DNA of 64,000 bases from Gammaproteobacteria bacterium (GTDB lineage: Bacteria > Pseudomonadota > Gammaproteobacteria > Steroidobacterales > Woeseiaceae): contig JAOTYE010000009.1 of assembly GCA_029862045.1 (NCBI GenBank), positions 39,314 to 103,313 of the forward strand, written 5' to 3'. Every line of letters starts with the position of its first letter. Position 1 is the stretch's first letter. Made by a program: the position numbers and the translations under genes. The notes below the pieces were generated by a model, which was not told where the DNA came from, ran no database searches, and worked only from the letters and a program-made list of their open reading frames with translations. This document shows, piece by piece, positions 3,547-15,911 of the stretch.

Positions 3547-3675
3547 GGGCCGGGAGGGTCCAATTGCCGAGATCTTTGGCGGGCAGACGCGCCTTACCAA
3601 GCTGGGTCATCCAGGTCGACAATTCGGTCTTTAGGTTACAAACACATCCGCTATGGCGATCCAGCGCAAGACACC

Positions 3676-3946
3676 ATTCTCTTCTCCAATTGCCTCAGAA
3701 TCGCTTAGAATCGAATTACTCTCACTATTATGCTCATTGGGCTGTGGATGAGAGCTAACTCCCTGATAAGCGGGTGTAGTTCAACGGTAGAACATCAGCT
3801 TCCCAATCGGAGTCGCTGAGTTGGCCAGCTCTCTAACCGCTTCATTTCCGTGGTCCTGTGACCACCGGTTTCAACGAGTTAGATCACCCGAAAGTAATCA
3901 ACTGAGTCTCGTAGGCCTTCTGAGTATGCTCAGTTTTACGCTCACT
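3676..3946 (+). repeat. R1: tRNA-Gly upstream arm + tRNA 5' half + conserved ~140-nt non-tRNA tail
   Basis: 3676-3769 aligns with 15745-15837, the region upstream of the intact tRNA. 3770-3806 equals tRNA nt 1-37 with 1 mismatch. 3807-3946 aligns with 13963-14103 of R2. Internal hairpins are GTGGTC-CTGT-GACCAC (3850-3865) and CTGAG-TATG-CTCAG followed by TTTT (3920-3937). Confidence 0.85.
3770..3806 (+). pseudogene. tRNA-Gly(CCC) 5' half (acceptor 5' strand, D arm, anticodon stem 5' strand and loop); no T arm or 3' acceptor strand follows
   Basis: gcgggtgtagttcaacggtagaacatcagcttcccaa differs at one position from nt 1-37 of the intact gene at 15838. Confidence 0.85.
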
Positions 3947-4005
3947 ACTGAATCGGCTTCGTAGAAAATACGGCCGATGGTTTGTCCATACGCCGGCATT
4001 TTGCG

Positions 4006-5517
4006 TCAGAACCGCAGGTTGAGCGACGAAATAAACGCTTCCCTGGACCCAGTGAAACCATTGTATTCGGCGCTCCACGATAACCGTTTGCTGATGTCCC
4101 AGTTGAAGCCCGTGACGATGTTCCAGTGATCCGTGTTCTGCTCGTCGATTCGGTAATCGAGCGTCAGGCCTTCGAGAGCTGGAATCTCGTCTCCCGGAAA
4201 CGTAAAGGATCCGTCGATGGTGACGTCGGAGTCCAGGTAGTTGCCGCCCACGAACACCGCCATGCTGCCGAGGTTGCCCAGATCAAGAAGTCTGCCAATC
4301 CGCGGCGTCACGGTAAGTGAGGACCCGTCCGCGACCCTGTCCTTGGGCTCAGCATAGGTCGCCGTTGCGGGAATCGTTACGAACCAGCCTTTCCAGCCGC
4401 CGGCGAGTAGCGCACCGTAACCCCATGTTTCAACATCGACGTCTGCGCGCACTGGGAAAGAAATGATCTGGTTTTCGAGCGCATCGCAAAGCGGTGGGCG
4501 CACGAGTGGCCTCGAGCAGTCCGTGCCGCGTCGATCGAGTATCAGGTTGCCGTCGAGAAATACGTCGAGATCGACGGAGCCATCGACTTTGCCATACATA
4601 CCAAAAACATTGAGAAACGGAAACAGCCAGGCATCGACCTTCAACTGAAACGACCTGGTGTCGGAGTTTGAATTCTCGAAGGATACGAAGTCGAACCGTT
4701 CGAGGTCGCCGCCGTTGAACCCAACGGACAGGTCGGTAAGGTCCAGGTCCTGGTTGATATCCACATAGGTCACGCCGAGCCCAATGGGTAAGGGCAGGTC
4801 GTAGCCCTTGTCGACAACCTTCTGGCCGAGAAACGGTAGCGTCCGCGTCCAGACCCGCGGCGTATCCCTGCCCTGGCGATCGCTGCGTGGGCCGCCGATG
4901 TTCGGGATGCTTGCAGTCGATATGCCGGTATCTGTCAGTTCCGTGTTGACACTGACCCGCGCGAGCCGCAGGTTTGCCCCGAGTTCTGCTCCGGACTGTG
5001 ACCGCACCCTGACCGACATCTCGTCGCTGATCCACTGCGCGACGCCTTCGGCTTCTCCGGCAACCGACACGAGATCATAAGACGGTATCCAGCGATTCCT
5101 CTTGAAGCTTTTCACCGTGTCGACGTCATTAAGCACAGCCAGTAATTGCACCTCACTAGCGCCGACGCCCAGACCGAAAGCGAATTCGTCGATATTTACA
5201 AAAGTTCGCGTGTTGTCAGTGCGGTCATACAAGATTCCGGTGGTGTCCCCGCGGCCAATCAGGCCGATCAGGAGGTCTGTGCCTGTTGCGACGATGTAGC
5301 CGGGGGATGACTCGATCTCTCTTTCGACATCCGGGTCCTCAGCTTTGAACGCCGCTAGCGCTTCATTGGAAGCCGTTGTCACTTCCTGACGAACCTGTTC
5401 GCGCTCTTCTACCGGGATGCTGCTGCAGCCAGCCAGGCTGAAGACAGCGAGTACAGCTATTGCGCTGAGACACACGCGGTCTCGAATTATCCTGGCCGTC
5501 ACTATTGTTTGCTCCAT
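4006..5517 (-). CDS. hypothetical outer-membrane-associated lipoprotein
   Basis: 503-aa ORF with lipoprotein signal ...LAVFSLAGC|SS. The C-terminal half is rich in alternating beta-strand-like segments and ends ...SSLNLRF (aromatic terminal residue typical of OMPs). Transcribed divergently from the TetR gene. Confidence 0.7.
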   Translation of the reverse strand: MEQTIVTARIIRDRVCLSAIAVLAVFSLAGCSSIPVEEREQVRQEVTTASNEALAAFKAEDPDVEREIESSPGYIVATGTDLLIGLIGRGDTTGILYDRTDNTRTFVNIDEFAFGLGVGASEVQLLAVLNDVDTVKSFKRNRWIPSYDLVSVAGEAEGVAQWISDEMSVRVRSQSGAELGANLRLARVSVNTELTDTGISTASIPNIGGPRSDRQGRDTPRVWTRTLPFLGQKVVDKGYDLPLPIGLGVTYVDINQDLDLTDLSVGFNGGDLERFDFVSFENSNSDTRSFQLKVDAWLFPFLNVFGMYGKVDGSVDLDVFLDGNLILDRRGTDCSRPLVRPPLCDALENQIISFPVRADVDVETWGYGALLAGGWKGWFVTIPATATYAEPKDRVADGSSLTVTPRIGRLLDLGNLGSMAVFVGGNYLDSDVTIDGSFTFPGDEIPALEGLTLDYRIDEQNTDHWNIVTGFNWDISKRLSWSAEYNGFTGSREAFISSLNLRF

Positions 5518-5533
5518 TGCCTACCTTGACGCG

Positions 5534-5569
5534 GTGACATGGTGTCACTAGAGTGTGACGCAATGTCAC
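5534..5569. promoter_or_regulatory. two palindromic candidate TetR operators in the divergent promoter region
   Basis: GTGACAtggTGTCAC (5534-5548) and GTGACgcaatGTCAC (5555-5569) lie between the lipoprotein start (5517) and the TetR start (5539 or 5563). Confidence 0.5.
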
Positions 5570-6237
5570 CTAGTCGGTCAAACAAACGCCCGGTCATTCA
5601 GCCGGAGCCAATAGCCCGGATCGGCACGGCAGAGCGCACTCGTGCCGAAATACTGGATGCGGCGTTCGAGTTCCTGTGGTCTCGCCCGTTTCGGGACATG
5701 ACGGTGAACGTCCTGATGGCGATGATTCCGCAAGGCCGGACCGCCTTTTACAAGTATTTCGATGATATCCATGGGGTCATGGCGGAGATGCTGAAGAGAC
5801 TGGAGGCCGAGATTCTCGAAGGTGCCAGCGCATGGCTCTCAGACGACGGCGATCCGGTCGCCTTGTTATACAAAAGTCTCGCGGCCGAGGTTCAAATCGG
5901 CTATCGCTATGGGCCGTTCATCAAGGCTGTCAGCGATGCCGCGGGGACCAATGCAGAGGTGGAAGACGAGTGGAACTGGCTCCTGGATCGGTTTGACGAT
6001 GCCGTGAGCGAGCGTATTGCTGCGGACCAGGAACTCGGCTTGATCGAAGCCTTCGATCCCGGCCCGGTCGCGACCGCGCTAAATCGGGTCGATGCCGCTA
6101 TGTATATTCGGCAATTTGGACACAGGCCGCGCAGCCGGCCGCAGCCGGTGGTGGATGCAATCACGCGCGTCTGGATCTCCACGCTGTACGGTCAAAGGTG
6201 GGCGACGAGCCGCAGATCCACACTGGTTCGAGAGTAG
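5539..6237 (+). CDS. TetR/AcrR family transcriptional regulator
   Basis: N-terminal HTH region RTRAEILDAAFEFLWSRPFRDMTVNVLMAMIPQGRTAFYKYF. The start is ATG 5539 or ATG 5563. Confidence 0.85.
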   Translation: MVSLECDAMSPSRSNKRPVIQPEPIARIGTAERTRAEILDAAFEFLWSRPFRDMTVNVLMAMIPQGRTAFYKYFDDIHGVMAEMLKRLEAEILEGASAWLSDDGDPVALLYKSLAAEVQIGYRYGPFIKAVSDAAGTNAEVEDEWNWLLDRFDDAVSERIAADQELGLIEAFDPGPVATALNRVDAAMYIRQFGHRPRSRPQPVVDAITRVWISTLYGQRWATSRRSTLVRE

Positions 6238-6337
6238 GTACCGTATTCGCACCAGCCAGGGGGGCGGAACGGCAGTAGCGCAGGCAGTTTTGGGTCTCAC
6301 TACAAAAATGAAGAAACGATAAGGGGAGGAGCGAACA

Positions 6338-8284
6338 ATGACGGGAATGATCTACAGGCTAATAACGACCTCGGCTGTTCTGTGCCTTGCGGCGTCAACT
6401 TTCACCACGAGCGTAGCCGTCGCACAGACCCATGCCGGTCAGCCCGAGAGTGTGGTGGACCCGGTAAAGATCTACTCGCCGTACGTCGAGCGCACGGCCT
6501 TGGATTCGAATCTCGCTGAGGGTGTCTACTGGGGCGACACGCATTTGCATACATCGTACTCGACCGACGCCGGCATGATGGGCAACAAACTCGGTCCGGA
6601 AGAGGCTTATCGTTTCGCCCGAGGCGAGGAAGTCCTGACGTCACATGGGGAGCGGGTTCGCCTGATCCGTCCACTGGATTTCTTGGTTGTGGCGGATCAT
6701 GCCGAAAACCTTGGCCTGGCGCCTTTTATTGCGGAGTCGCACCCCGAGCTGTTAAAGAGCGAGTGGGGCAAGGCGGTTCACGACATGGTCAAGGCCGGCG
6801 ATTCCCGAGGCGCCTTCCAGAGATGGCTCAGCGACGCGGTCACCCCCGGGACGGACCCGATCAACAACCCGAAGATGGCCCGGACAGTATGGGACCGCGA
6901 GATCGAATTCGCTGACAAGTACAACGAACCCGGCCGCTTCACTGCGCTGATCGGGTTCGAGTGGACGTCCATCTCGACCCGCGAAAACCCGGGCAACCTG
7001 CACCGCGTGGTGATCTTCAAGGATGGCCGCGACAAGGCCTCGCAGGTAGTGCCGTTCTCCACGTTCGACTCCTACGACCCGGAGAAACTGTGGGACTACA
7101 TGGCGGACTACGAGGAGAAGACCGGCGGCAGCATGCTGGCGATTGCGCACAACGGCAACGTGTCCAATGGGCAGATGTTTGCCACCGAACGCCTGAATGG
7201 CCGACCGATCAAGCGGGAATATGCGGAGATGCGCGCCCGCTTCGAGCCACTGTACGAAGTGACGCAGATCAAGGGCGACGGTGAGGCGCACCCGTTCCTG
7301 TCACCGAACGATGAATTCGCTGACTACGGTACCTGGGACAAGTCCGACATCGTTGGCATGAATCCCAAGGAAGACTGGATGCTGAAGCATGAATACGCTC
7401 GCTCGGCGTTGCAGATCGGCATGCAACTCGAAGAAAAGCTGGGCGTCAATCCCTACAAATTCGGCATGATCGGTAGCACCGACGCCCACACGTCGTTGGC
7501 GACGACCCGCGAAGAAAATTTCTACGGCAAAGCAGCGCACCTCGAGCCCGAAGCGAACCGCTGGGAACATACAATTATTGCGTCTCTGTCCGGTAACCCG
7601 GAATTTTCCAGCTATTCCTACGAATCGATTGGCGCCGGTCTCGCGGCGGTCTGGGCGCGTGAGAACACGCGTGAAGGCATCTTCAATGCAATGATTCGGA
7701 AGGAAACCTACGCCACGACGGGTACCCGCATCGTCGTTCGGTTCTTCGGCGGCTGGGACTACGAGAACGACGAGGTATATCGTCCCGACGTGATATCCAT
7801 CGGTTATCGCAAGGGGGTGCCGATGGGCGGTGACCTGGCGGTAAGACCTGAGGGCAAGGCAGCGCCGACATTCATGGTGGGGGCACTGAAAGACTCGTGG
7901 TCCGGCAACCTGGATCGCATCCAGATCATCAAGGGTTGGATCGACAGCGACGGCGAGCGCCAGGAGCGCGTATACGATGTGGCTGTATCCGATGGTCGGA
8001 CCATTGACGCCGACGGCCGCTGCCGAACCCCGGTCGGCGATACCGTTGATGTGGCAGACGCAAGCTATCTCAACACGATCGGCGACGCGGAATTGCGCGC
8101 CGTCTGGACCGACCCGGACTTCAATCCCGAGCACCGGGCCTTTTACTACGCGCGAGTGCTGGAAATTCCAACGCCCACCTGGCAGGCCTATGACGCGAAG
8201 TTTTACGAGGTCGAGATGCCCGATACCGTAATGATGAAGGGCCAGGAGCGAGCCTACACGTCACCGATCTGGTACACGCCCTAG
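6338..8284 (+). CDS. DUF3604 domain-containing secreted protein (paralogue 1)
   Basis: RBS AGGGGAGGAG and a signal peptide. Motif [16 protein letters not shown] and C-terminus [12 protein letters not shown] are typical of DUF3604 as I recall it. Confidence 0.85.
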
Positions 8285-8310
8285 ACAACAACAAGAGCGA
8301 GGAGCGAATC

Positions 8311-10257
8311 ATGACTGGAACCAACTCGAGAGCGATAACGGCCCTGGCCGTCATGTGCCTGGCGTCTGCGTTTTTGCCAGGGAACGCGCGCGCACAAATC
8401 AACCCTGAGGTGACGGAAGAGGATGCCGCCAAGCTATACCCGGGGAAAACGTATTCTCCTTATGCACAGCGGGCGTTCCCCAGCAACGTTTACTGGGGCG
8501 AGACGCATCTGCATACGGGGTTGTCGCTAGACGCGGGCTTGTTCGGCAACACGCTGACACCCGATGACGCGTACCGATTCGCCCGTGGCGAGGAGGTCAA
8601 ATCGTCGACCGGCCTGCCCGTCAAGCTCGGCCGGCCGCTTGACTTTCTCGTTGTCGCCGATCATTCCGACGCAATGGGTCTCGCCCTCGACATCAAGAAG
8701 GGGACTCCGAATATCCTGGCAGATCCGACAGGCAAGCGTTGGCACGAGGCCTTCATGAAGGGCGGCCAGGAAGCGGGCAAGGCTGCGTTTGAACTGATCC
8801 AGGCATTTGCCCAGTTCAAACTGCCCGAGAAGATGGTGGCGGATTATTCGCCCGGATCCGCACCGTTTGCCACGGTGTGGGATACGATCGTCGACTCAGC
8901 GGAAAAATACAACGAACCCGGTCGATTTACGGCGTTCATCGGCTACGAGTGGACTGCGGTTCCCCAGGGTAACAACCTGCATCGAAACGTCATTCTCCGC
9001 GACGGTGGTGACCGGGCCCGGCAGATCCTGCCGTTGACCACACAGCCGCCGATCGGGACGACCGATCCGCTGGATCTGTACCATTGGCTCGAGAACTACG
9101 AATCGAAGACCGGTGGACAGGCTCTTGCTATCGCGCACAACGGTAACCTGTCGAACGGCTGGTTGTTCCCGATGGACAAGCGCTATTCGGGTGGCCGGGT
9201 CAACAAGGAGTATGTGGCGCTGCGAGCTGAGTGGGAGCCGCTTTACGAGGTTACGCAGATGAAGGGCGATGGGGAAACGCATCCGGCCCTTTCTCTTAAC
9301 GATGAATTCGCCGACTACGGTACCTGGGACAAGGGCAACCTCGACCTGTCGGCCCTGAAGAAGCCCGAGATGCTCGCGGGCGAATATGCCCGTGAGGCAC
9401 TGAAGAACGGCTTGGTGCTCGAAGAGAAGTTCGGCACGAATCCCTACAAGTTCGGCATGGTCGGTGCGACCGACAGTCACACGGCGCTGGCAACAGCAGA
9501 GGAAGAGAACTTCTTCAGCAAGTCCGTGAGCGTAGAACCGTCGCCGACCCGAATCGAGCATCCATTTATCAAGTCCGATCTCGCCGCTATCGAGGGAGAT
9601 GAAATCGTCGGTGCCGGCTACCAGGGCATCTGGGCGACCGAGAACACGCGCGAGGCGCTGTTCGATGCGATGGAGCGAAAGGAAACCTATGCGACGACCG
9701 GCCCACGCATGGTCGTGCGATTCTTCGGCGGCTGGGATTACACGGACGATGACCTGCGTAGCCGCGCGCCCGCATTCCGCGGCTATGAGAAAGGTGTGCC
9801 GATGGGCGGTGACCTGACGATGGCGCCTCAGGGAAAGGTGCCGACGTTCATGGTGTACGCGCTCCGCGATCCAATTGGCGCGAATCTTGATCGTATTCAG
9901 GTCGTCAAAGGCTGGGTCGACGATCGGGGTAAGACCCAGGAGAAGGTCTACGATGTTGCCTGGTCGGGTGACCGGAGTCCCGGCGCGGATGGCAAGCTGC
10001 CGGCTGTCGGCAATACGGTCGACATCGAGGCGGCCAACTGGACCAACACGATCGGCGCATCAGAGCTGGCAACGGTCTGGACCGATCCGGACTTCGATGC
10101 GGATCAGCGAGCGTTTTACTACGCGCGCGTGCTCGAAATCCCGACGCCACGCTGGGTGCTCTATGACAAGGTCCGCTTCGGCATCGAACTACCCGAACGT
10201 GCGGAATTGATTCACCAGGAGCGCGCCTACACGTCACCTATCTGGTACACGCCCTAG
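8311..10257 (+). CDS. DUF3604 domain-containing secreted protein (paralogue 2)
   Basis: Same length (648 aa) as the upstream gene. Motif [16 protein letters not shown] and an identical C-terminus [12 protein letters not shown]. The two are collinear over the full length. Confidence 0.85.
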
Positions 10258-10291
10258 GCAAGAAGCACATCATCAACGACGGAGAGGCGCA

Positions 10292-11734
10292 ATGGAGATT
10301 TTAAGAAGCTTGGCATTAACGCTGCTCCTCAGCGTTTTCGGCCAAGCGGCCCTGGCCCAGGACAAGCCGAACATCGTCCTGGTCTTCATGGACAACTTCG
10401 GCTGGGGCGAACCCGGGTTCAACGGCGGCGGCATCATTCGTGGCGCCGCGACACCGCAGATTGACTCACTGGCCGCCGAGGGGCTTCGGCTCACCAACTT
10501 CAACGTGGAGGTCCAGTGCACGCCGTCGCGCTCGACATTGATGACGGGCCGCTATGCGATCCGCAGCGGCAACGGCACGGTACCGCTGGGCGAAGGAGTT
10601 TATGGCCTCGTGCAGTGGGAAGTGACCATGGCGGAGATGCTCGCTGACGCCGGGTATGCCACCGGCATGTTCGGCAAGTGGCATCTCGGTCGCACGGAAG
10701 GCCGCTTCCCGACCGACCAGGGTTTCGACGAGTGGTACGGCATCCCCAACTCGACCGACGAATCGGTTTATTCAGAGTTGCAGGATTTCGCCGAAAGCGG
10801 TGTTGCGGAATCCTGGGTCATGGAAGGCAAGAAGGGCAGCGCGCCGAAAAAGGTACGTCCCTATCGGCTGGACTACCGGCCGCTGATCGATCGCGACCTG
10901 ACCGACAAAGCGATCAGCTTCATGCGCCGCCAGGCGAAGGCCGACAAGCCGTTCTTCGTTTACCTGCCGTACACGGCCACGCATTTTCCGGCGATCCCGC
11001 ACCCCGACTTCGACGGCAAATCCGGCAACGGGCCGTGGGGCGACATGCTGATGCAGATCGACAGCTACGTTGGCGAGTTGCTCGAGACGATCGATGACCT
11101 CGGGTTGGCAGACGACACGATCTTCATCTTCACGGCGGACAATGGCCCCGAGGCGCTGAGCGCCGGCGAAACATCGATGACCGTGGAAACGGCCCTGCAT
11201 GGTTCCGCCGGCCCGTGGCGCTCGACGCTGTTCACAGGGTATGAGGGCGCCCTTCGCGTACCGTTTGCCGTCCGGTGGCCCGATAAGATTGAAGCGGGTC
11301 GGGTGAGCGATGAGATCGTGCATGCGATGGACCTCTTCCCGACACTGGCCGGGATCGCTGGTGGCAAGGTGCCGTTGGACCGAGTCATCGACGGCATCGA
11401 CATGTCCGGTTTCTTCCTTGGTAAAACGCAGCAATCAGGCAGAGAGGGCTTCATCGTCTACATGGGTAATGACGTGTTTGGCGTGAAGTGGCGCGACTGG
11501 AAACTCCATTTCAAGGAGCAGACCGGGTGGAACGGCGTGCTGCGCGAGTACACGATGCCCCGCCTCTACAACCTGATCAACGATCCCCAGGAACGCGACA
11601 ACGTGCTTTTCCCACACACGTGGGTGCCGAAGGCGGCTTTGCCGCAGTTGCAGGAACACGTCCTTTCGCTCAGGAAGAATCCGCCGATCCCGAGCGGAGC
11701 GCCCGACCCCTACAAGCCGGCCGGAAAGAAGTGA
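10292..11734 (+). CDS. arylsulfatase (formylglycine-dependent sulfatase family)
   Basis: Signal peptide. Sulfatase signature CTPSRSTLMTGRY (C-x-P-x-R) follows NIVLVFMDNFGWGEPG. Confidence 0.9.
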   Translation: MEILRSLALTLLLSVFGQAALAQDKPNIVLVFMDNFGWGEPGFNGGGIIRGAATPQIDSLAAEGLRLTNFNVEVQCTPSRSTLMTGRYAIRSGNGTVPLGEGVYGLVQWEVTMAEMLADAGYATGMFGKWHLGRTEGRFPTDQGFDEWYGIPNSTDESVYSELQDFAESGVAESWVMEGKKGSAPKKVRPYRLDYRPLIDRDLTDKAISFMRRQAKADKPFFVYLPYTATHFPAIPHPDFDGKSGNGPWGDMLMQIDSYVGELLETIDDLGLADDTIFIFTADNGPEALSAGETSMTVETALHGSAGPWRSTLFTGYEGALRVPFAVRWPDKIEAGRVSDEIVHAMDLFPTLAGIAGGKVPLDRVIDGIDMSGFFLGKTQQSGREGFIVYMGNDVFGVKWRDWKLHFKEQTGWNGVLREYTMPRLYNLINDPQERDNVLFPHTWVPKAALPQLQEHVLSLRKNPPIPSGAPDPYKPAGKK

Positions 11735-11739
11735 ACGGG

Positions 11740-12690
11740 ATGCTGTTTCGGGCGTTCGCGCTCGCCGGCCTTTGCCTGCTGTTCCTGTACCCGCTGGCGG
11801 CTCAGGCGCAACTGTCCGGCCACAATACCCGGGGCGACTATGGACTCATGTCAGGTACGCAAGTGCCCGTGGGTACCTATGGGGTGGGAATGTACTATGA
11901 CTTCGCGGCCGACACGCTGCGCGATAGAAACGGGAACTCATTTCCGGCCATTTCCGACGGCGGCTCGGTGGACATACGGGCCGCTGTCGCGGGTCTGATA
12001 AAAACGACAGACAGAAAATTGTTCGGCGGCAACTACGGGTTTGGAATCTATGTCGCTGCGACCAACAATGCCGTGGAACTACCCGCTCTGCAAACCGACA
12101 CCGAGACCAGCACCGGCCTTGCGGACACCTACATTCAACCCCTGATACTTGGTTGGACAACGAAACGCGCTGATTTCATGGCTGGATTGGGGGTTTATGC
12201 GCCTACTGGGCGTTACGACCCCGATGCGGACGATAATCGCGGGCTGGGCATGTGGAGCTACGAGGCGTTCGCAGGAACGACGGTCTATTTCGACGAGGCA
12301 CGCACGTGGCACTTCGCGGGAACAGCGTTCTACGAAACCCATGGCAAGAAAGAAGACACGGACATTCGCGTCGGCGATATTCTTACCATCGAAGGAGGCT
12401 TCGGCAAATCGTTTATGGACGGTGCCGCAAGCGCCGGTCTGGCCTATTACGCGCAGTGGAAAGTCAGCAGGGACGACTTCGGCGTAACGCCGCCCGGTGG
12501 ACCTTTCCTTGGTAAACACGAGGTGTATGGTGTCGGTGCGGAACTCACGTTGCCTCTGGCCAGCAAGTCCAAGTTATACGGCTTTGCGAATCTTCGTTAC
12601 TTTTGGGAAACAGGGGTAAAAACCACGCTGGAGGGCGAGACCCTTCTGCTAACGCTAAGCTTTCCCTTCCCCAGCATTCCTCTGCAATGA
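11740..12690 (+). CDS. outer-membrane beta-barrel channel, MetA-pathway/'transporter' family-like (tentative)
   Basis: True start is ATG 11740 (MLFRAFALAGLCLLFLYPLAAQAQ signal peptide). The ORF-track start at 11488 overlaps the sulfatase gene in another frame. Alternating beta-strand pattern. Confidence 0.65.
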   Translation: MLFRAFALAGLCLLFLYPLAAQAQLSGHNTRGDYGLMSGTQVPVGTYGVGMYYDFAADTLRDRNGNSFPAISDGGSVDIRAAVAGLIKTTDRKLFGGNYGFGIYVAATNNAVELPALQTDTETSTGLADTYIQPLILGWTTKRADFMAGLGVYAPTGRYDPDADDNRGLGMWSYEAFAGTTVYFDEARTWHFAGTAFYETHGKKEDTDIRVGDILTIEGGFGKSFMDGAASAGLAYYAQWKVSRDDFGVTPPGGPFLGKHEVYGVGAELTLPLASKSKLYGFANLRYFWETGVKTTLEGETLLLTLSFPFPSIPLQ

Positions 12691-12771
12691 GGCAACTGTC
12701 GGCGGCCGAATGTTAAACGCAGAAAAGAAACATGCCGGCCTATTATCGAAACTTCCCCAGGAGGACCTGCA

Positions 12772-13080
12772 ATGAAATTCAAACAATGGCTGCTTGGTGC
12801 GGCACTATGCTCCGTATTCAGTTTTGCGGCGACCGCCGCAGATGCACCCGACAACGGACTGGCCGTACTTGGCTGGAGCGAAGCGACCCTCGTTGCGGAT
12901 CGAGATGACCGTAAGGACCGGCGGGACGAGCGTGGTCGCGCAGATGAACGCCAGGAGAAGCGCGACTGCCGCCAGGAAGAAGGCCGCGTCGGCAAAGACA
13001 AGCGCGAATGCAAGCAGGATGAGGTGCGCGACGGCGTCCGGGGCCAAAAAGATGACGACGACAAGGAAGAGGACGCCTAA
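12772..13080 (+). CDS. small secreted, extremely charged (D/E/R/K-rich) protein of unknown function
   Basis: Strong RBS CAGGAGG 7 nt upstream. Clear signal peptide MKFKQWLLGAALCSVFSFAATAADA. The mature part is a low-complexity charged sequence with two Cys. Confidence 0.55.
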   Translation: MKFKQWLLGAALCSVFSFAATAADAPDNGLAVLGWSEATLVADRDDRKDRRDERGRADERQEKRDCRQEEGRVGKDKRECKQDEVRDGVRGQKDDDDKEEDA

Positions 13081-13159
13081 AGCGGACCGGGAGTGGTGGA
13101 CGGCCGGCAGTCTCGCAAAAGGCTGTGGAAACACCAAAAGGGTCTCTTGAAGCAGCCAT

Positions 13160-13807
13160 ATGAAAGTTGAACAGAACAAGAATGCCGCTGCCCCTCTGAT
13201 AACCGGCGTCCTGGTTCTCGCCGTTTCATACGCTGTGCTCCGTTATCACGTCGTGGGACCGGTGCCGTGGAAGGACTTTCCGTTTTTCATCCTGAACAAG
13301 GGGTTTTCGCTCGCGGCGTTTGTCTTGATTGCATGCAATTTCGGCTTCGGCCCTCTGAGAAACATCGGAGTCCGTGTACCGGAGAGCTGGTTGGCCGCCC
13401 GCAAGGCCGTCGGTATGACCGGGTTTCTGCTGGTTCTTATTCACGCGCTGATGAGCTTCTTGCTGTTCAAACCGGCGGTATACGGCAACTTCTTTTCCCA
13501 GGACGGGACTTTGACCTTATTCGCCGGTCTGAGCATGCTCACAGGGGTCCTGGCGTTTGTGGTCCTCTGGGCCTACAACCTGAGTTTCCAGACATTCCTG
13601 CGCGAAGACAAAGCCTTCATTTCACTCATCACATCGCGCCGATTTCTGCTCGTCGCATTCATACTTGGCGGTGCCCACCTGTTGTTCATGGGCTACGAGG
13701 GTTGGATGAAGCCCGGGCGCTGGCACGGCGGACTGCCGCCTATCAGTCTGGTCGCTTTCGCTGTTTTCGCGATGGCCTACATCGTCAACCTGTTTGGCCG
13801 TGAATGA
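13160..13807 (+). CDS. integral membrane protein, ferric-reductase/YedZ(MsrQ)-like topology (tentative)
   Basis: 215 aa with about six hydrophobic helices. Conserved-looking His residues in LVLIHALMSF and GGAHLLFMG. Confidence 0.6.
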   Translation: MKVEQNKNAAAPLITGVLVLAVSYAVLRYHVVGPVPWKDFPFFILNKGFSLAAFVLIACNFGFGPLRNIGVRVPESWLAARKAVGMTGFLLVLIHALMSFLLFKPAVYGNFFSQDGTLTLFAGLSMLTGVLAFVVLWAYNLSFQTFLREDKAFISLITSRRFLLVAFILGGAHLLFMGYEGWMKPGRWHGGLPPISLVAFAVFAMAYIVNLFGRE

Positions 13808-13834
13808 TCGGCAAACTCTTGCCAACGCGACGAT

Positions 13835-14103
13835 CCCTTCTCCGTAGCCGAGAGATTGGTTTAGAATCCGAGTACTCTCACTTTTATGCTCAGCCAGACC
13901 TGAGTGAGACGTAACTCCCTGATATGCGGGTGTCGTTCAATGGTAGGACATCAGCTTCCCAATCGGAGTCGCTGAGTTGGGCGCTCGTATAACTGCTTGA
14001 TTATCGTGGTGCTGTGACCACCGGTTTCAACGAGTTAGATCACCCGAAAGTAACCAACTGAGTCCTGTGGACTTTCTGAGTATGCTCAGTTGTACGCTCA
14101 CTT
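13835..14103 (+). repeat. R2: second copy of the tRNA-Gly upstream arm + tRNA 5' half + conserved non-tRNA tail
   Basis: 13861-13925 aligns with the region upstream of the intact tRNA. 13926-13962 equals tRNA nt 1-37 with 3 mismatches. 13963-14103 aligns block-wise with the R1 tail, including a 59-nt block with only 2 differences. Confidence 0.85.
13926..13962 (+). pseudogene. tRNA-Gly(CCC) 5' half, second truncated copy
   Basis: gcgggtgtcgttcaatggtaggacatcagcttcccaa. The D stem is still pairable (one G-U). No T arm or 3' acceptor strand follows. Confidence 0.85.
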
Positions 14104-14193
14104 CTTGGATGGTCGATGACGAGACGCTTCGCGAATGATCAGCACCCACACGAGCACGAACGCAGCCAATGGGATAATGACAAACCATTCCAT
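14098..14193 (-). CDS. possible 31-aa hydrophobic peptide (below the ORF-track cutoff)
   Basis: ATG 14193 lies 1 nt after the stop of the 75-aa ORF (TGAcATG). Product MEWFVIIPLAAFVLVWVLIIREASRHRPSKK is one TM helix with a basic tail. Its stop lies inside the right end of R2. Confidence 0.25.
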   Translation of the reverse strand: MEWFVIIPLAAFVLVWVLIIREASRHRPSKK

Positions 14194-14194
14194 G

Positions 14195-14422
14195 TCAGTT
14201 TTCCTCGAGATCGTCAATGAGACGATACGCAATGCGGTTAATTTGGAAGATACCGCTGGTGACTACTATAGCAGCAACGCCGGCAGCAGCGACGAGGATC
14301 GGGTTTGCTTTGGTGTAAGACTGCGCCAGCCAACCAAGCAAGGATGCATCGATCACAGCGAGAAGGCCGAACGGAACTTTCAACCATCCGATTTCTTCCT
14401 TGATTCTGTTGACTCTCGCCAT
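14195..14422 (-). CDS. small two-TM membrane protein, unknown function
   Basis: 75-aa ORF with two hydrophobic segments, in an AT-richer stretch. No recognisable motif. Confidence 0.45.
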   Translation of the reverse strand: MARVNRIKEEIGWLKVPFGLLAVIDASLLGWLAQSYTKANPILVAAAGVAAIVVTSGIFQINRIAYRLIDDLEEN

Positions 14423-14512
14423 GTCACAGTACCCGCTGCCTGCCTTCCTTCATTTTTGATGGATTGAACACGGGCGTCTATGTCGATTTGCGGTCAATTC
14501 CTTCCGATTCCC

Positions 14513-15706
14513 TCAGTTCAGCAGGTCAACACGGCCTGATTTGAGCCAGTCCGACTGCTCCGTTCTCTCGCTGCGATCAGGCGGTCCTGCCGGTTGAGGA
14601 GGCGCGGCAGGCCATGCCTCATCGGTGCCGATGACCCTTCGTACACGAATACCGTCTGCGTTGACGTTCCAGACCAACAGGTCGTCCGCGAGGGTTAACG
14701 GTCCATCATAGGTCTTGCGAATCTCTTCGAGGGTGCCCGGTGCGACATTGAAGTCGGCGAAGTTGTGGTAAGCAATCGCCATGCGAGGCTGCAGTCGCGA
14801 GAAGATCTTGCCGCATGACGACGGCGGTGTGTGAAGTACCGTCGAGACAATTCGGGCTCGCTCAGGATCATATTTTTTCAGGTCAATGAGTTGCTGCACC
14901 GTGAAATAGCATTCGTGAATCAGCAGATCGGCATCGCCGGATTCAGCAAGAAACCACTTGTTGGGGACAGTATCCCCTGAGTAAACGAACTTCTTGCCAT
15001 TCCACTCCAGGCTGTAGCTGACGGCCCCGTCGATCGTATGCACGGCAGGCCACGCCTTGATCTTTACGCCATTCTGTTCATAGATGACGTGGCTCTTGCG
15101 GTAGTCAAACTCCGTCACTTCTATGTGGCCGCCCGCCGACGGCATGTTGCCTCTGCGGCCTGTCAGGTCCCAGGTGAACATCTCACGCATACGGTCGATG
15201 GCGTATTTCGTCCCGGTCTCCGGTTTAAGGCCACTAGGACCCCAGACCCGCAGTGGCCCAGTCCGGTTCGAGACCCAGCCGCCTATGAACATGGCATCCA
15301 GATCGCCGATATGGTCGACGTGCAAATGACTGATGAATATCTTGTCCAGGTAGGTGTAAGGAATTTCCAGCGCTCCGAGATTCGCAAGCGACCCGGTGCC
15401 GATATCGAAAAGGAACTTATCCCCGTTATCCAACTCGACCAGCCACGATGCAGATGCCTGCGAGCGGCGAAAGTTCGGTGTACCTGTTCCCAATGCAATC
15501 ACACGCATCTCGTCCGAACCGAGTGGTTCGGTATTCGGGAAATAATTGTCCCTCGAAGCTGTCTCTTCCTCCGCAGCCATCGCAGCATCGACGGCTGCGG
15601 ACATCACCGTCTTTGGCATGTCGCCGATGCCGGAGATAGCGACCGCCAATGCGCTGATTAGCACGATCACGGGTATTGTCGTTCTTAGTGAAGGAGTGAC
15701 TCTCAT
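14513..15706 (-). CDS. MBL-fold metallo-hydrolase, exported
   Basis: N-terminal signal/anchor. Metallo-beta-lactamase motif SHLHVDHIGD (HxHxDH). RNase Z-like N-terminal block RVIALGTGTP. Confidence 0.85.
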   Translation of the reverse strand: MRVTPSLRTTIPVIVLISALAVAISGIGDMPKTVMSAAVDAAMAAEEETASRDNYFPNTEPLGSDEMRVIALGTGTPNFRRSQASASWLVELDNGDKFLFDIGTGSLANLGALEIPYTYLDKIFISHLHVDHIGDLDAMFIGGWVSNRTGPLRVWGPSGLKPETGTKYAIDRMREMFTWDLTGRRGNMPSAGGHIEVTEFDYRKSHVIYEQNGVKIKAWPAVHTIDGAVSYSLEWNGKKFVYSGDTVPNKWFLAESGDADLLIHECYFTVQQLIDLKKYDPERARIVSTVLHTPPSSCGKIFSRLQPRMAIAYHNFADFNVAPGTLEEIRKTYDGPLTLADDLLVWNVNADGIRVRRVIGTDEAWPAAPPQPAGPPDRSERTEQSDWLKSGRVDLLN

Positions 15707-15744
15707 CTTTCTTCCTCAGGGGGAGGGTGCTCTCGCACAGCCCA

Positions 15745-15837
15745 ATCTCTTCTCCAATCGGCTCAGAATAGCTTAGAATCCGAGTACTCTCACTTTTATG
15801 CTCAGCCAAGCCCAAGTGAGACGTAACCCCCTGATTT
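15745..15837 (+). repeat. R3: upstream arm shared with R1 and R2, here joined to the intact tRNA-Gly gene
   Basis: aatctcttctccaatcggctcagaatagcttagaatccgagtactctcacttttatgctcagcc... aligns with 3676-3769 and 13835-13925. Confidence 0.8.
15773..15799 (+). promoter_or_regulatory. promoter-like hexamers upstream of tRNA-Gly (also present in R1 and R2)
   Basis: TTAGAA, 15 nt, TTTTAT (TATTAT in R1). The spacing is suboptimal, so this is only a candidate. Confidence 0.3.
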
Positions 15838-15911
15838 GCGGGTGTAGTTCAATGGTAGAACATCAGCTTCCCAAGCTGAGAATGAGGGTTCGATTCCCTT
15901 CACCCGCTCCA
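15838..15911 (+). tRNA. tRNA-Gly (anticodon CCC), CCA encoded
   Basis: 74 nt. Acceptor stem GCGGGUG/CACCCGC, D stem GUUC/GAAC, anticodon stem UCAGC/GCUGA with loop UUCCCAA, T arm GAGGG-UUCGAUU-CCCUU, discriminator U then CCA. Confidence 0.95.

Follow-up and report, generated by a model that had tools for sequence, protein, structure and literature searches.

Within a stretch of 64,000 nucleotides (nt) of contig JAOTYE010000009.1 from a gammaproteobacterium of the family Woeseiaceae (the window), a module of ~270 bp occurs twice, as R1 and R2, in which the upstream region of a tRNA-Gly gene and tRNA positions 1–37 are followed by a 140-nt tail, and the question raised by this locus is what such a composite module is and what keeps its tail conserved. 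An earlier examination of these letters, referred to here as the sequence-only reading, had noted that near-perfect blocks alternate with scrambled spacers when R1 and R2 are compared, and had argued that the tail is under functional constraint rather than recently duplicated, with either protein-binding sites or RNA helices as the constrained feature. The inference of constraint without recent duplication is supported by the family of modules described below, in which no helix is maintained by covariation, and R1 and R2 are probably attL-type junctions left by the serial insertion of cassettes into tRNA-Gly(CCC), the crossover lying at the 3′ border of the anticodon loop. The simplest account of the locus, serial site-specific insertion, would place it among the additive tRNA-linked islands known from marine bacteria.

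The sole tRNA gene in the window is a tRNA-Gly(CCC) gene on the plus strand at 15838–15911 (ARAGORN; 73.8 bits with Rfam), and a repeat finder placed three plus-strand copies of the ~75 nt upstream of it together with its first 37–43 nt, at 3697–3812, 13853–13968, and 15765–15880. By the same means R1 (3678–3946) and R2 (13834–14102) were found to be collinear without gaps over 253 nt at an offset of 10156, and in a three-way alignment the upstream region common to all three copies starts at TCTCTTCTCC (positions 3678, 13834, and 15746). Past the anticodon loop (...TTCCCAA) the intact gene continues into GCTGAGAATGAGGGTTCGATTCCC and R1 and R2 continue into their common 140-nt tail. In R1, all of it on the plus strand, the upstream region (3678–3769) runs from TCTCTTCTCC through GCTTAGAATC and TACTCTCAC-TAT-TATGCTCA to a leader, is aligned with the corresponding regions of R2 and of the intact tRNA gene, and may, given its position, have a promoter role. 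It is followed by positions 1–37 of tRNA-Gly(CCC), from the acceptor 5′ strand to the anticodon loop ending in TTCCCAA (3770–3806; 36 of 37 positions identical to the intact tRNA), and by the tail (3807–3946), which scores 186.6 bits against an nhmmer tail profile and has the pattern of blocks and spacers. R2 is built in the same way and on the same strand, with the upstream region and leader at 13834–13925 (63 nt at 92% identity to the intact-tRNA upstream region) and tRNA positions 1–37, in a variant with C9 and G23, at 13926–13962 (35 of 37 identical to the intact tRNA). Its tail consists of block 1, TCGGAGTCGCTGAGTTGG (13963–13980; majority frequency 0.95), a first hypervariable spacer (13981–13990; 0.64 among 39 copies), block 2, TAACYGCTTGATT..CGTGGTSCTGTGACCACCGGTTTCAACGAGTTAGATCACCCGAAAGTAACCAACTGA (13991–14061; 0.89–0.95), a second hypervariable spacer (14062–14071; 0.61), and block 3, CTTTCTGAGTATGCTCAG-TTGTACGCTCACT (14072–14102; 0.96 and 0.85, respectively). 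Block 2 holds the palindrome GTGGTC-N4-GACCAC and pieces resembling the tRNA 3′ half (GGTTTCAA and TCACCCG), and the end of block 3 is the limit of family-wide homology, the flanks differing straight after CTCAC. The intact gene and its upstream region (15746–15911, plus strand; ARAGORN, Rfam 73.8 bits) anchor the array at its proximal end. Only this gene was called by ARAGORN; R1 and R2 have no T arm, and the 5′ half of R1 reaches 22.9 bits against the Rfam tRNA model at permissive settings, under the gathering score of 29, so the complete cloverleaf seen by tRNA finders is absent from the modules.

Further copies of the module were retrieved by exact match to 20–24 nt within the 59-nt conserved block that the sequence-only reading had delimited in the middle of the tail, 24 nt being used in a metagenome scan (23 contigs) and 20 nt in a scan of one genome per species (21 stretches). 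Because the copies were fetched by exact match there, conservation of the searched 20–24 nt is partly so by construction; the other blocks, and extra copies recovered by nhmmer in the same loci, are free of this bias. The nhmmer tail profile gave 77 tail matches, 63 of them distinct, and 39 distinct full-length modules (alignment A5) together with partial ones were obtained from ~45 contigs. Their hosts are Woeseiaceae and unclassified gammaproteobacterial metagenome-assembled genomes (MAGs) from marine and estuarine sediments, with one contig binned as Gemmatimonadota, and the contigs that encode proteins of the window come from estuarine sediment metagenomes. Among the 39 copies the majority base has a frequency of 0.93–0.96 in the blocks, 0.64 in spacer 1, and 0.61 in spacer 2, and the mean pairwise identity is 0.91 in the blocks (still 0.91 when the searched stretch is left out) against 0.56 in the spacers. 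The tail blocks are also more similar than the homologous protein-coding genes of the neighboring cassettes, which are 65–84% identical at the nucleotide level. Similarity among the copies is star-like around the consensus, and the tail is 0.94 identical to that consensus in each of three module classes, with or without the acceptor strand and upstream region; 24 of the 39 modules have kept the upstream region, and 15 are without acceptor strand or upstream region.

Base by base, R1 and R2 differ as the sequence-only reading had counted them, at three of the 37 tRNA positions (9, 16, and 23), nowhere in the next 18 nt (TCGGAGTCGCTGAGTTGG), twice in the 59-nt block, at five positions of an 11-nt spacer, and once in the last 27 nt. 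The 25-nt spacer that it described as about half different does contain 11 differences, but across the family only its first ~10 nt are hypervariable and TAACCGCTTGATTTCC is conserved. The two tails differ at 19 of 140 nt and their longest stretch with two or fewer differences is 60 nt (permutation p ~0.02), such that the clumping of differences is of modest significance for the two copies alone and unambiguous with 39 copies. Had the additional copies shown the 59-nt block to be no better conserved than the spacers, the argument for selection would have failed; the block held, and 39 copies from many genomes agree in which blocks are kept and in which spacers are scrambled. Between the tails of R1 and R2 the identity is 0.86, versus 0.90–0.91 between each of them and copies on other contigs, and since each is nearer to copies in other genomes, the two did not arise by recent local duplication of one another. 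Elsewhere in the family, two modules lying 5.6 kb apart on contig CAVOVJ010000008.1 (L041, 3770–3947, and L030, 1403–1510) are 96–100% identical over ~340 nt apart from 27 nt around spacer 2, where ~10 differences are found, a pattern that reflects either local hypervariability or short-patch conversion. Patchy recombination between modules of one contig was also seen.

RNA structure does not appear to be what is conserved. RNAalifold applied to the 39 copies gave −10.7 kcal/mol with a covariation term of +0.06, and a double change was present in 1 of 28 predicted pairs. When the pairs of the proposed helices were counted by cell in the 39-copy alignment, a count whose power is limited by the high conservation, the acceptor-like helix GCGGGTG/CACCCG had 59 broken, no compensated, and 2 wobble pairs, GTGGTC/GACCAC had 15, 1, and 3, GGTT/AAYC had 14, 0, and 3, and CTGAG/CTCAG had 10, 0, and 2, respectively, and the double changes were confined to the true D stem in the tRNA portion of the module. 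The two substitutions in the 59-nt block to which the sequence-only reading had drawn attention fare no better, as the U-to-C change proposed to improve a GGUU/AAYC pairing lies within no covariation pattern (14 broken, 0 compensated) and the change at the loop-closing position of the GUGGU hairpin (C to G in R2) merely breaks a pair. Relative to shuffled sequences, the folding energy has z = −0.37 for R2 and z = −1.47 for R1, and folds as single-stranded DNA have z of about −2.2 to −2.4 for the 3′ part of the consensus and −0.7 to −0.8 for R2. A tRNA-like fold with GCGGGTG/CACCCG as its acceptor, obtained with RNAalifold from two sequences, was rejected because the base facing C2 varies freely and because the 15 modules without the 5′ strand still keep the tail, and a longer helix, GTAAC..AACTGAG/CTCAGTT..TTAC, which appeared in both single-stranded DNA and RNA folds, was rejected because the variants in alignment A5 are breaks only. 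A search of the window with Rfam gave no match at the gathering score for the modules, only a sub-threshold tRNA match at permissive settings, and neither a covariance-model match nor compensatory substitutions, by which structured noncoding RNAs (ncRNAs) are recognized, were found. Direct reading also excluded a coding function, as stops occur in all frames of both strands and the variation has no 3-nt periodicity. A consensus scan of the module revealed no sigma-70 promoter and no intrinsic terminator, and the hairpin CTGAG-TATG-CTCAG, considered as a terminator, was discarded because it has 5 bp and is not compensated.

As DNA, the module is rich in repeated short motifs. CTGAG/CTCAG is present seven times in the 267-nt consensus, a number reached in 0 of 5000 shuffles, and CTGAGT is present four times in direct orientation. 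Both TATGCTCAG and TACTCTCAC are found twice in the consensus, in the upstream region and at the end of the tail with their order swapped, and tail block 3 repeats the TATGCTCAG and TAC(T/G)CTCAC of the upstream region, likewise in swapped order. A resemblance of the tail end TACTCTCAC to sequence downstream of the intact tRNA gene was set aside because it is not conserved in other genomes. Since there is no covariation and the tail is equally well kept without the acceptor strand or the upstream region, the constraint is on the primary sequence, and this together with the motif repeats would fit protein-binding DNA better than folded RNA. By analogy, the tail blocks are plausible candidates for arm-type protein-binding sites, the first of the two options raised by the sequence-only reading.

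The edges of the tRNA homology are informative as to how the modules may have been formed. In all module classes the right edge is position 37, after TTCCCAA, and four different partners follow it, namely the 3′ half of the tRNA, the tail, just the final 30 nt of the tail (L054), and unrelated sequence (L046). Such a breakpoint is that of the anticodon-loop type of tRNA-gene attachment site. On the left, homology begins exactly at tRNA +1 behind unrelated DNA in L010, L035, and L038, a start that would be expected with a left arm from the host and a right arm from the element, and the other modules have either the full upstream region or arms termed X_B and X_C with only positions 19–37 kept. 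The tail of L035 starts with GCTGAG-TC-GCTGAG, and this identifies the TCGGAG in block 1 as a mutated second copy of GCTGAG, the 3′ strand of the anticodon stem. The X_C sub-family (L018, 2182–2542; L005, 362–708; L039, 6860–7218; and others) has the order upstream region and positions 1–18, a conserved insert of ~95 nt, a degenerate copy of positions 1–18, and then positions 19–37 and the tail, a layout pointing to the D loop as a second place where breakpoints recur. In a sister strain (L054, 2440–2684, minus strand, homologous to 3640–4010 of the window), positions 1–37 are joined straight to TATGCTCAGTTTTACGCTCAC, such that 118 nt of tail are missing; the upstream region differs, a 503-amino-acid (aa) gene is identical, and the downstream cassette is otherwise near-identical to that of R1.

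The modules are arranged in arrays. All modules lie on the same strand in 18 of the 18 contigs that have more than one, with a spacing of 0.7–10 kb (median 3.1 kb), and on one 92.8-kb contig of a Woeseiaceae MAG they extend from 14.9 kb to 82 kb. Where the end of an array is visible (the window, L020/L027, and L046), it is at an intact tRNA-Gly(CCC) gene, and in this strain no further module is present within 10 kb upstream of R1, which is therefore the most distal. Many pairs of modules have the upstream flank alone or the downstream flank alone in common, and flanks shared on one side only identify the modules as junctions between independently assorting cassettes. The proximal module is nearer to the consensus in 11 of 17 adjacent pairs (Wilcoxon p = 0.066), a weak trend that fits an age gradient.

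The insertion model that we favor would account for this geometry as follows. One end of the incoming element would carry a copy of the tRNA-Gly upstream region and positions 1–37, as it must if insertion at the anticodon loop displaces the 5′ side of the gene, since the element then has to supply its own upstream region and 5′ half; this carried part would rebuild a working tRNA gene with the resident 3′ half. The other end of the element would carry the 140-nt tail, and every insertion would shift the older upstream region and 5′ half further upstream, fused to the tail of the newcomer, so that repeated insertion would yield a same-strand array of module, cassette, module, cassette, and tRNA. 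The tail would be a conserved arm of the attachment site of the element, with its blocks fixed as DNA sequence and the spacers between them free to vary, and the CTGAG(T) repeats and the GTGGTC-N4-GACCAC palindrome would be candidate sites for the recombinase or accessory proteins. Selection on the mobile form would preserve the upstream region, the 5′ half, and the binding sites of the arm, while modules within an array would recombine with one another to give shuffled cassettes and mosaics. The recombinase would act in trans or have since been lost. That the recombination is site-specific, the direction in which it proceeds, and a role of the blocks in protein binding are inferred. Positions 9 and 23 of tRNA are members of the 9-12-23 base triple, and C9 and G23 occur together in the tRNA 5′ halves of R2, L005 (6673–6709), and L027 (the module near 7282), a linked change that may reflect past function in an intact tRNA and agrees with 5′ halves having once been part of a working tRNA.

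Several observations weigh against this insertion model. No integrase was found in the cassettes of the window by tblastn with an integrase or by Pfam, no recombinase is among the 25 most frequent Pfam families listed for the 64-kb window, none recurs among the 25 most frequent families listed for 123 open reading frames (ORFs) near modules (a single integrase could be missed in either list), and none was seen beside intact tRNA genes or at array ends, which were partly sampled. The only integrase next to a module, in L007, proved to be a member of a tRNA-Arg(ACG) island family that has no relation to the tRNA-Gly modules. Tyrosine integrases of this type (L007, 2548–3759; L049, L050, and L051, 10001–11180) are 70–93% identical across Woeseiaceae and are preceded by an Integrase_1 (PF12835) gene, and they are always followed by tRNA-Arg(ACG) or a 3′ fragment of it on the other strand, cut in the anticodon loop; as they abut tRNA-Arg(ACG), they represent a different, classical island system. 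No copy of the tail was present in INPHARED (phages), PLSDB (plasmids), or IMG/VR, by which a phage or plasmid origin of the module was rejected, no circular or attP form was found, and the GC content of the cassettes is native-like rather than foreign. In addition, modules with X_B or X_C left arms could not rebuild a working tRNA, and the 105 nt that run from the GTGGTC-N4-GACCAC palindrome to the 3′ end of the tail also occur alone behind other genes, which a simple anticodon-loop model does not predict. Recombination breakpoints are found inside the tail as well, and in module pairs that share a downstream cassette the tail body is not always inherited with it, as in R2 versus L005, which requires either that modules recombined internally at a later stage or that there is an additional crossover point. 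The missing recombinase, the stand-alone 3′ sub-module, the left arms that do not rebuild a tRNA, and the tail-internal breakpoints together allow for a system of integron type that works in trans, or for homologous or patchy exchange between modules at a later time.

If the arrays are an integron-like platform, non-autonomous cassettes would have the modules, or just the 105 nt at the 3′ end of the tail, as their recombination sites and tRNA-Gly as their entry site, and a dedicated recombinase encoded elsewhere in Woeseiaceae genomes would capture, excise, and reshuffle them. The long integrase-free arrays of direct repeats with cassettes of 1–10 kb would be explained in this way, as would a toxin-antitoxin cassette placed between two partial tails, reminiscent of chromosomal integrons, the recurrence of cassettes in changed order and beside different modules, and a tail conservation that is equal whatever its left neighbor. 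However, the window, the ORFs near modules, and the sampled array ends yielded no candidate recombinase, the cassettes are multi-gene with both orientations represented, and neither covariation nor a paired structure like that of attC is present. Such a platform and decayed tandem islands are not distinguished by the data, and we consider the platform unlikely.

If instead each module served to make a functional ncRNA, the tRNA upstream region would drive a transcript of the 5′ half and the tail, either a tRNA-like RNA or a small RNA with a single-stranded seed. The 24 of 39 modules with an upstream region, the retention in the tail of GCTGAG, GGTTTCAA, and TCACCCG in tRNA order, the pairing of the acceptor 5′ strand with CACCCG by two-sequence RNAalifold, and the slightly better than shuffled folding of the consensus 3′ part (z ~−2.2) could all be taken in its favor, and strong conservation of primary sequence is compatible with a small RNA seed. 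Yet the helices have 10–59 pair-breaking variants each versus 0–1 compensated, the base facing acceptor C2 varies freely, the folds of R2 (z = −0.37) and R1 (−1.47) are unexceptional, the tail is kept equally where acceptor strand and upstream region are absent, no Rfam family is matched and the consensus scan recognized no terminator, and the sister strain L054 manages without 118 nt of the tail, which makes an ncRNA unlikely. It is very unlikely that the modules are neutral relics, that is, decaying duplicates of a tRNA pseudogene with a functionless tail and with blocks owed to gene conversion or very recent spread. The patchy mosaicism among modules of one contig and the star-like similarity around the consensus are what such relics would display, and direct repeats favor conversion, but the same blocks are kept and the same two spacers saturated (0.56) in 39 copies from many MAGs and samples, the blocks (0.91) surpass neighboring protein-coding homologues (65–84%), and conversion alone leaves unexplained the constant escape of particular 10-nt windows.

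The cassettes themselves are varied. That between R1 and R2 (3947–13833; annotations from Pfam) encodes a 503-aa protein on the minus strand, a TetR/EthR regulator, two DUF3604 paralogs, a sulfatase, a MetA-type porin, small ORFs, and a 215-aa membrane protein. The two DUF3604 paralogs, of 648 aa each, are adjacent (6338–8284 and 8311–10257) and ~72–78% identical as DNA, and DUF3604 genes recur in the cassettes of other arrays. A 102-aa ORF at 12772–13080 is extremely rich in K, R, D, and E; gene calling recovers it in all related contigs, and Pfam gave no match. The cassette between R2 and the tRNA (14103–15745) comprises a 75-aa ORF and a 397-aa secreted protein with a metallo-beta-lactamase fold, both on the minus strand. 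Cassettes related to the R1–R2 cassette are present in L011 and L016 with differing neighbors, and the first ~400 nt of the R2–tRNA cassette recur behind a different module in L005/L017. Across the arrays, cassette genes in both orientations include DUF3604, DUF1254/1214, sulfatases, amidohydrolases, regulators of the TetR, MarR, and AraC families, TonB receptors, and a RelE/XRE toxin-antitoxin pair. The last of these forms a RelE-like toxin/XRE antitoxin cassette of ~640 bp in L032 (6300–7300, minus strand), located between two partial tails that start at the palindrome; truncated remnants of it lie beside partial tails in L033 and L048, and in L048 the toxin gene has the upstream region of the module fused into it.

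The Woeseiaceae, also known as the JTB255 group, rank among the most abundant bacteria in marine sediments, and to our knowledge little is known about the turnover of their accessory genome. The repeat family provides a sequence tag for a hypervariable region with sulfatases, DUF3604 and DUF1254/1214 proteins, regulators, and toxin-antitoxin pairs, and its geometry is unusual in that the cassettes would have entered on the 5′ side of a tRNA gene and brought an upstream region with them. Should a recombinase acting in trans exist, the arrays would constitute a new platform for cassette capture, and if the integron-like explanation is true, they would be accessory arrays of tens of kilobases without an element-borne integrase. 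If there is no recombinase in trans, the locus would still be a well-documented case in which the conserved arms of an attachment site mimic a structured RNA to a reader of sequence only. The significance of the family would rise with the demonstration of a trans-acting recombinase or of an expressed tail RNA.

Among known systems, chromosomal integrons such as those of Vibrio with their VCRs have in common with the present arrays long runs of highly similar direct repeats, promoter-less accessory cassettes, toxin-antitoxin cassettes, and a recombinase that is not within the cassettes. They differ in that here no IntI was found, with no IntI-type integrase adjoining the arrays at the ends sampled, which were sampled in part, and in that the cassettes are multi-gene and bidirectional and the repeat is tRNA-derived. 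The attC architecture of imperfect inverted repeats, in which structure prevails over sequence, is not seen either, as here it is the sequence that is conserved; two attC-like R″/R′ boxes, TTTCAAC and GTTAGAT, are merely 2 nt apart and were put down to chance. The arms of lambda-type attP sites resemble the tail in that short blocks alternate with free spacers beside a core, and the four direct repeats of CTGAGT might correspond to such arm sites, the motif assignment being by analogy alone.

The islands that displace a 5′ fragment of their tRNA gene, the rarer orientation with 159 of the 3919 islands in Islander (PMC4383910), have an intact tRNA at one end, same-orientation fragments upstream of it, a breakpoint at the anticodon loop or T loop, and the replaced part of the gene supplied by the element. 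R1 and R2, L020/L027, and L046 share the intact tRNA with same-strand 5′ fragments upstream, their homology ends after TTCCCAA, and they resemble the tandem arrays of that type. Unlike those islands, in which each member of a tandem carries an integrase, no integrase was found in or beside the sampled cassettes, where a singleton could be missed. The arrays are far longer than the tandems of Islander, in which only four of three or more are listed (PMC4383910), ~90 nt of upstream region are duplicated, and nearly every fragment bears a conserved arm of 140 nt. Additive tRNA-linked cassette islands have been described in marine bacteria (PMC4898812), including Alteromonas, and tRNA-linked islands of Prochlorococcus are seeded by tycheposons (tycheposon preprint). 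The repeats in Alteromonas are short partial tRNAs downstream of a cassette, whereas those described here are 5′ halves with an upstream region and a long tail, and tycheposons carry a tyrosine recombinase together with replication or packaging hallmark genes, whereas the cassette ORFs here are metabolic and regulatory and no such hallmark genes were found among them. What the present arrays share with the islands of both organisms is that they are hot spots anchored at a tRNA gene, that their accessory cassettes differ between close relatives, and that partial tRNA repeats mark the old insertions.

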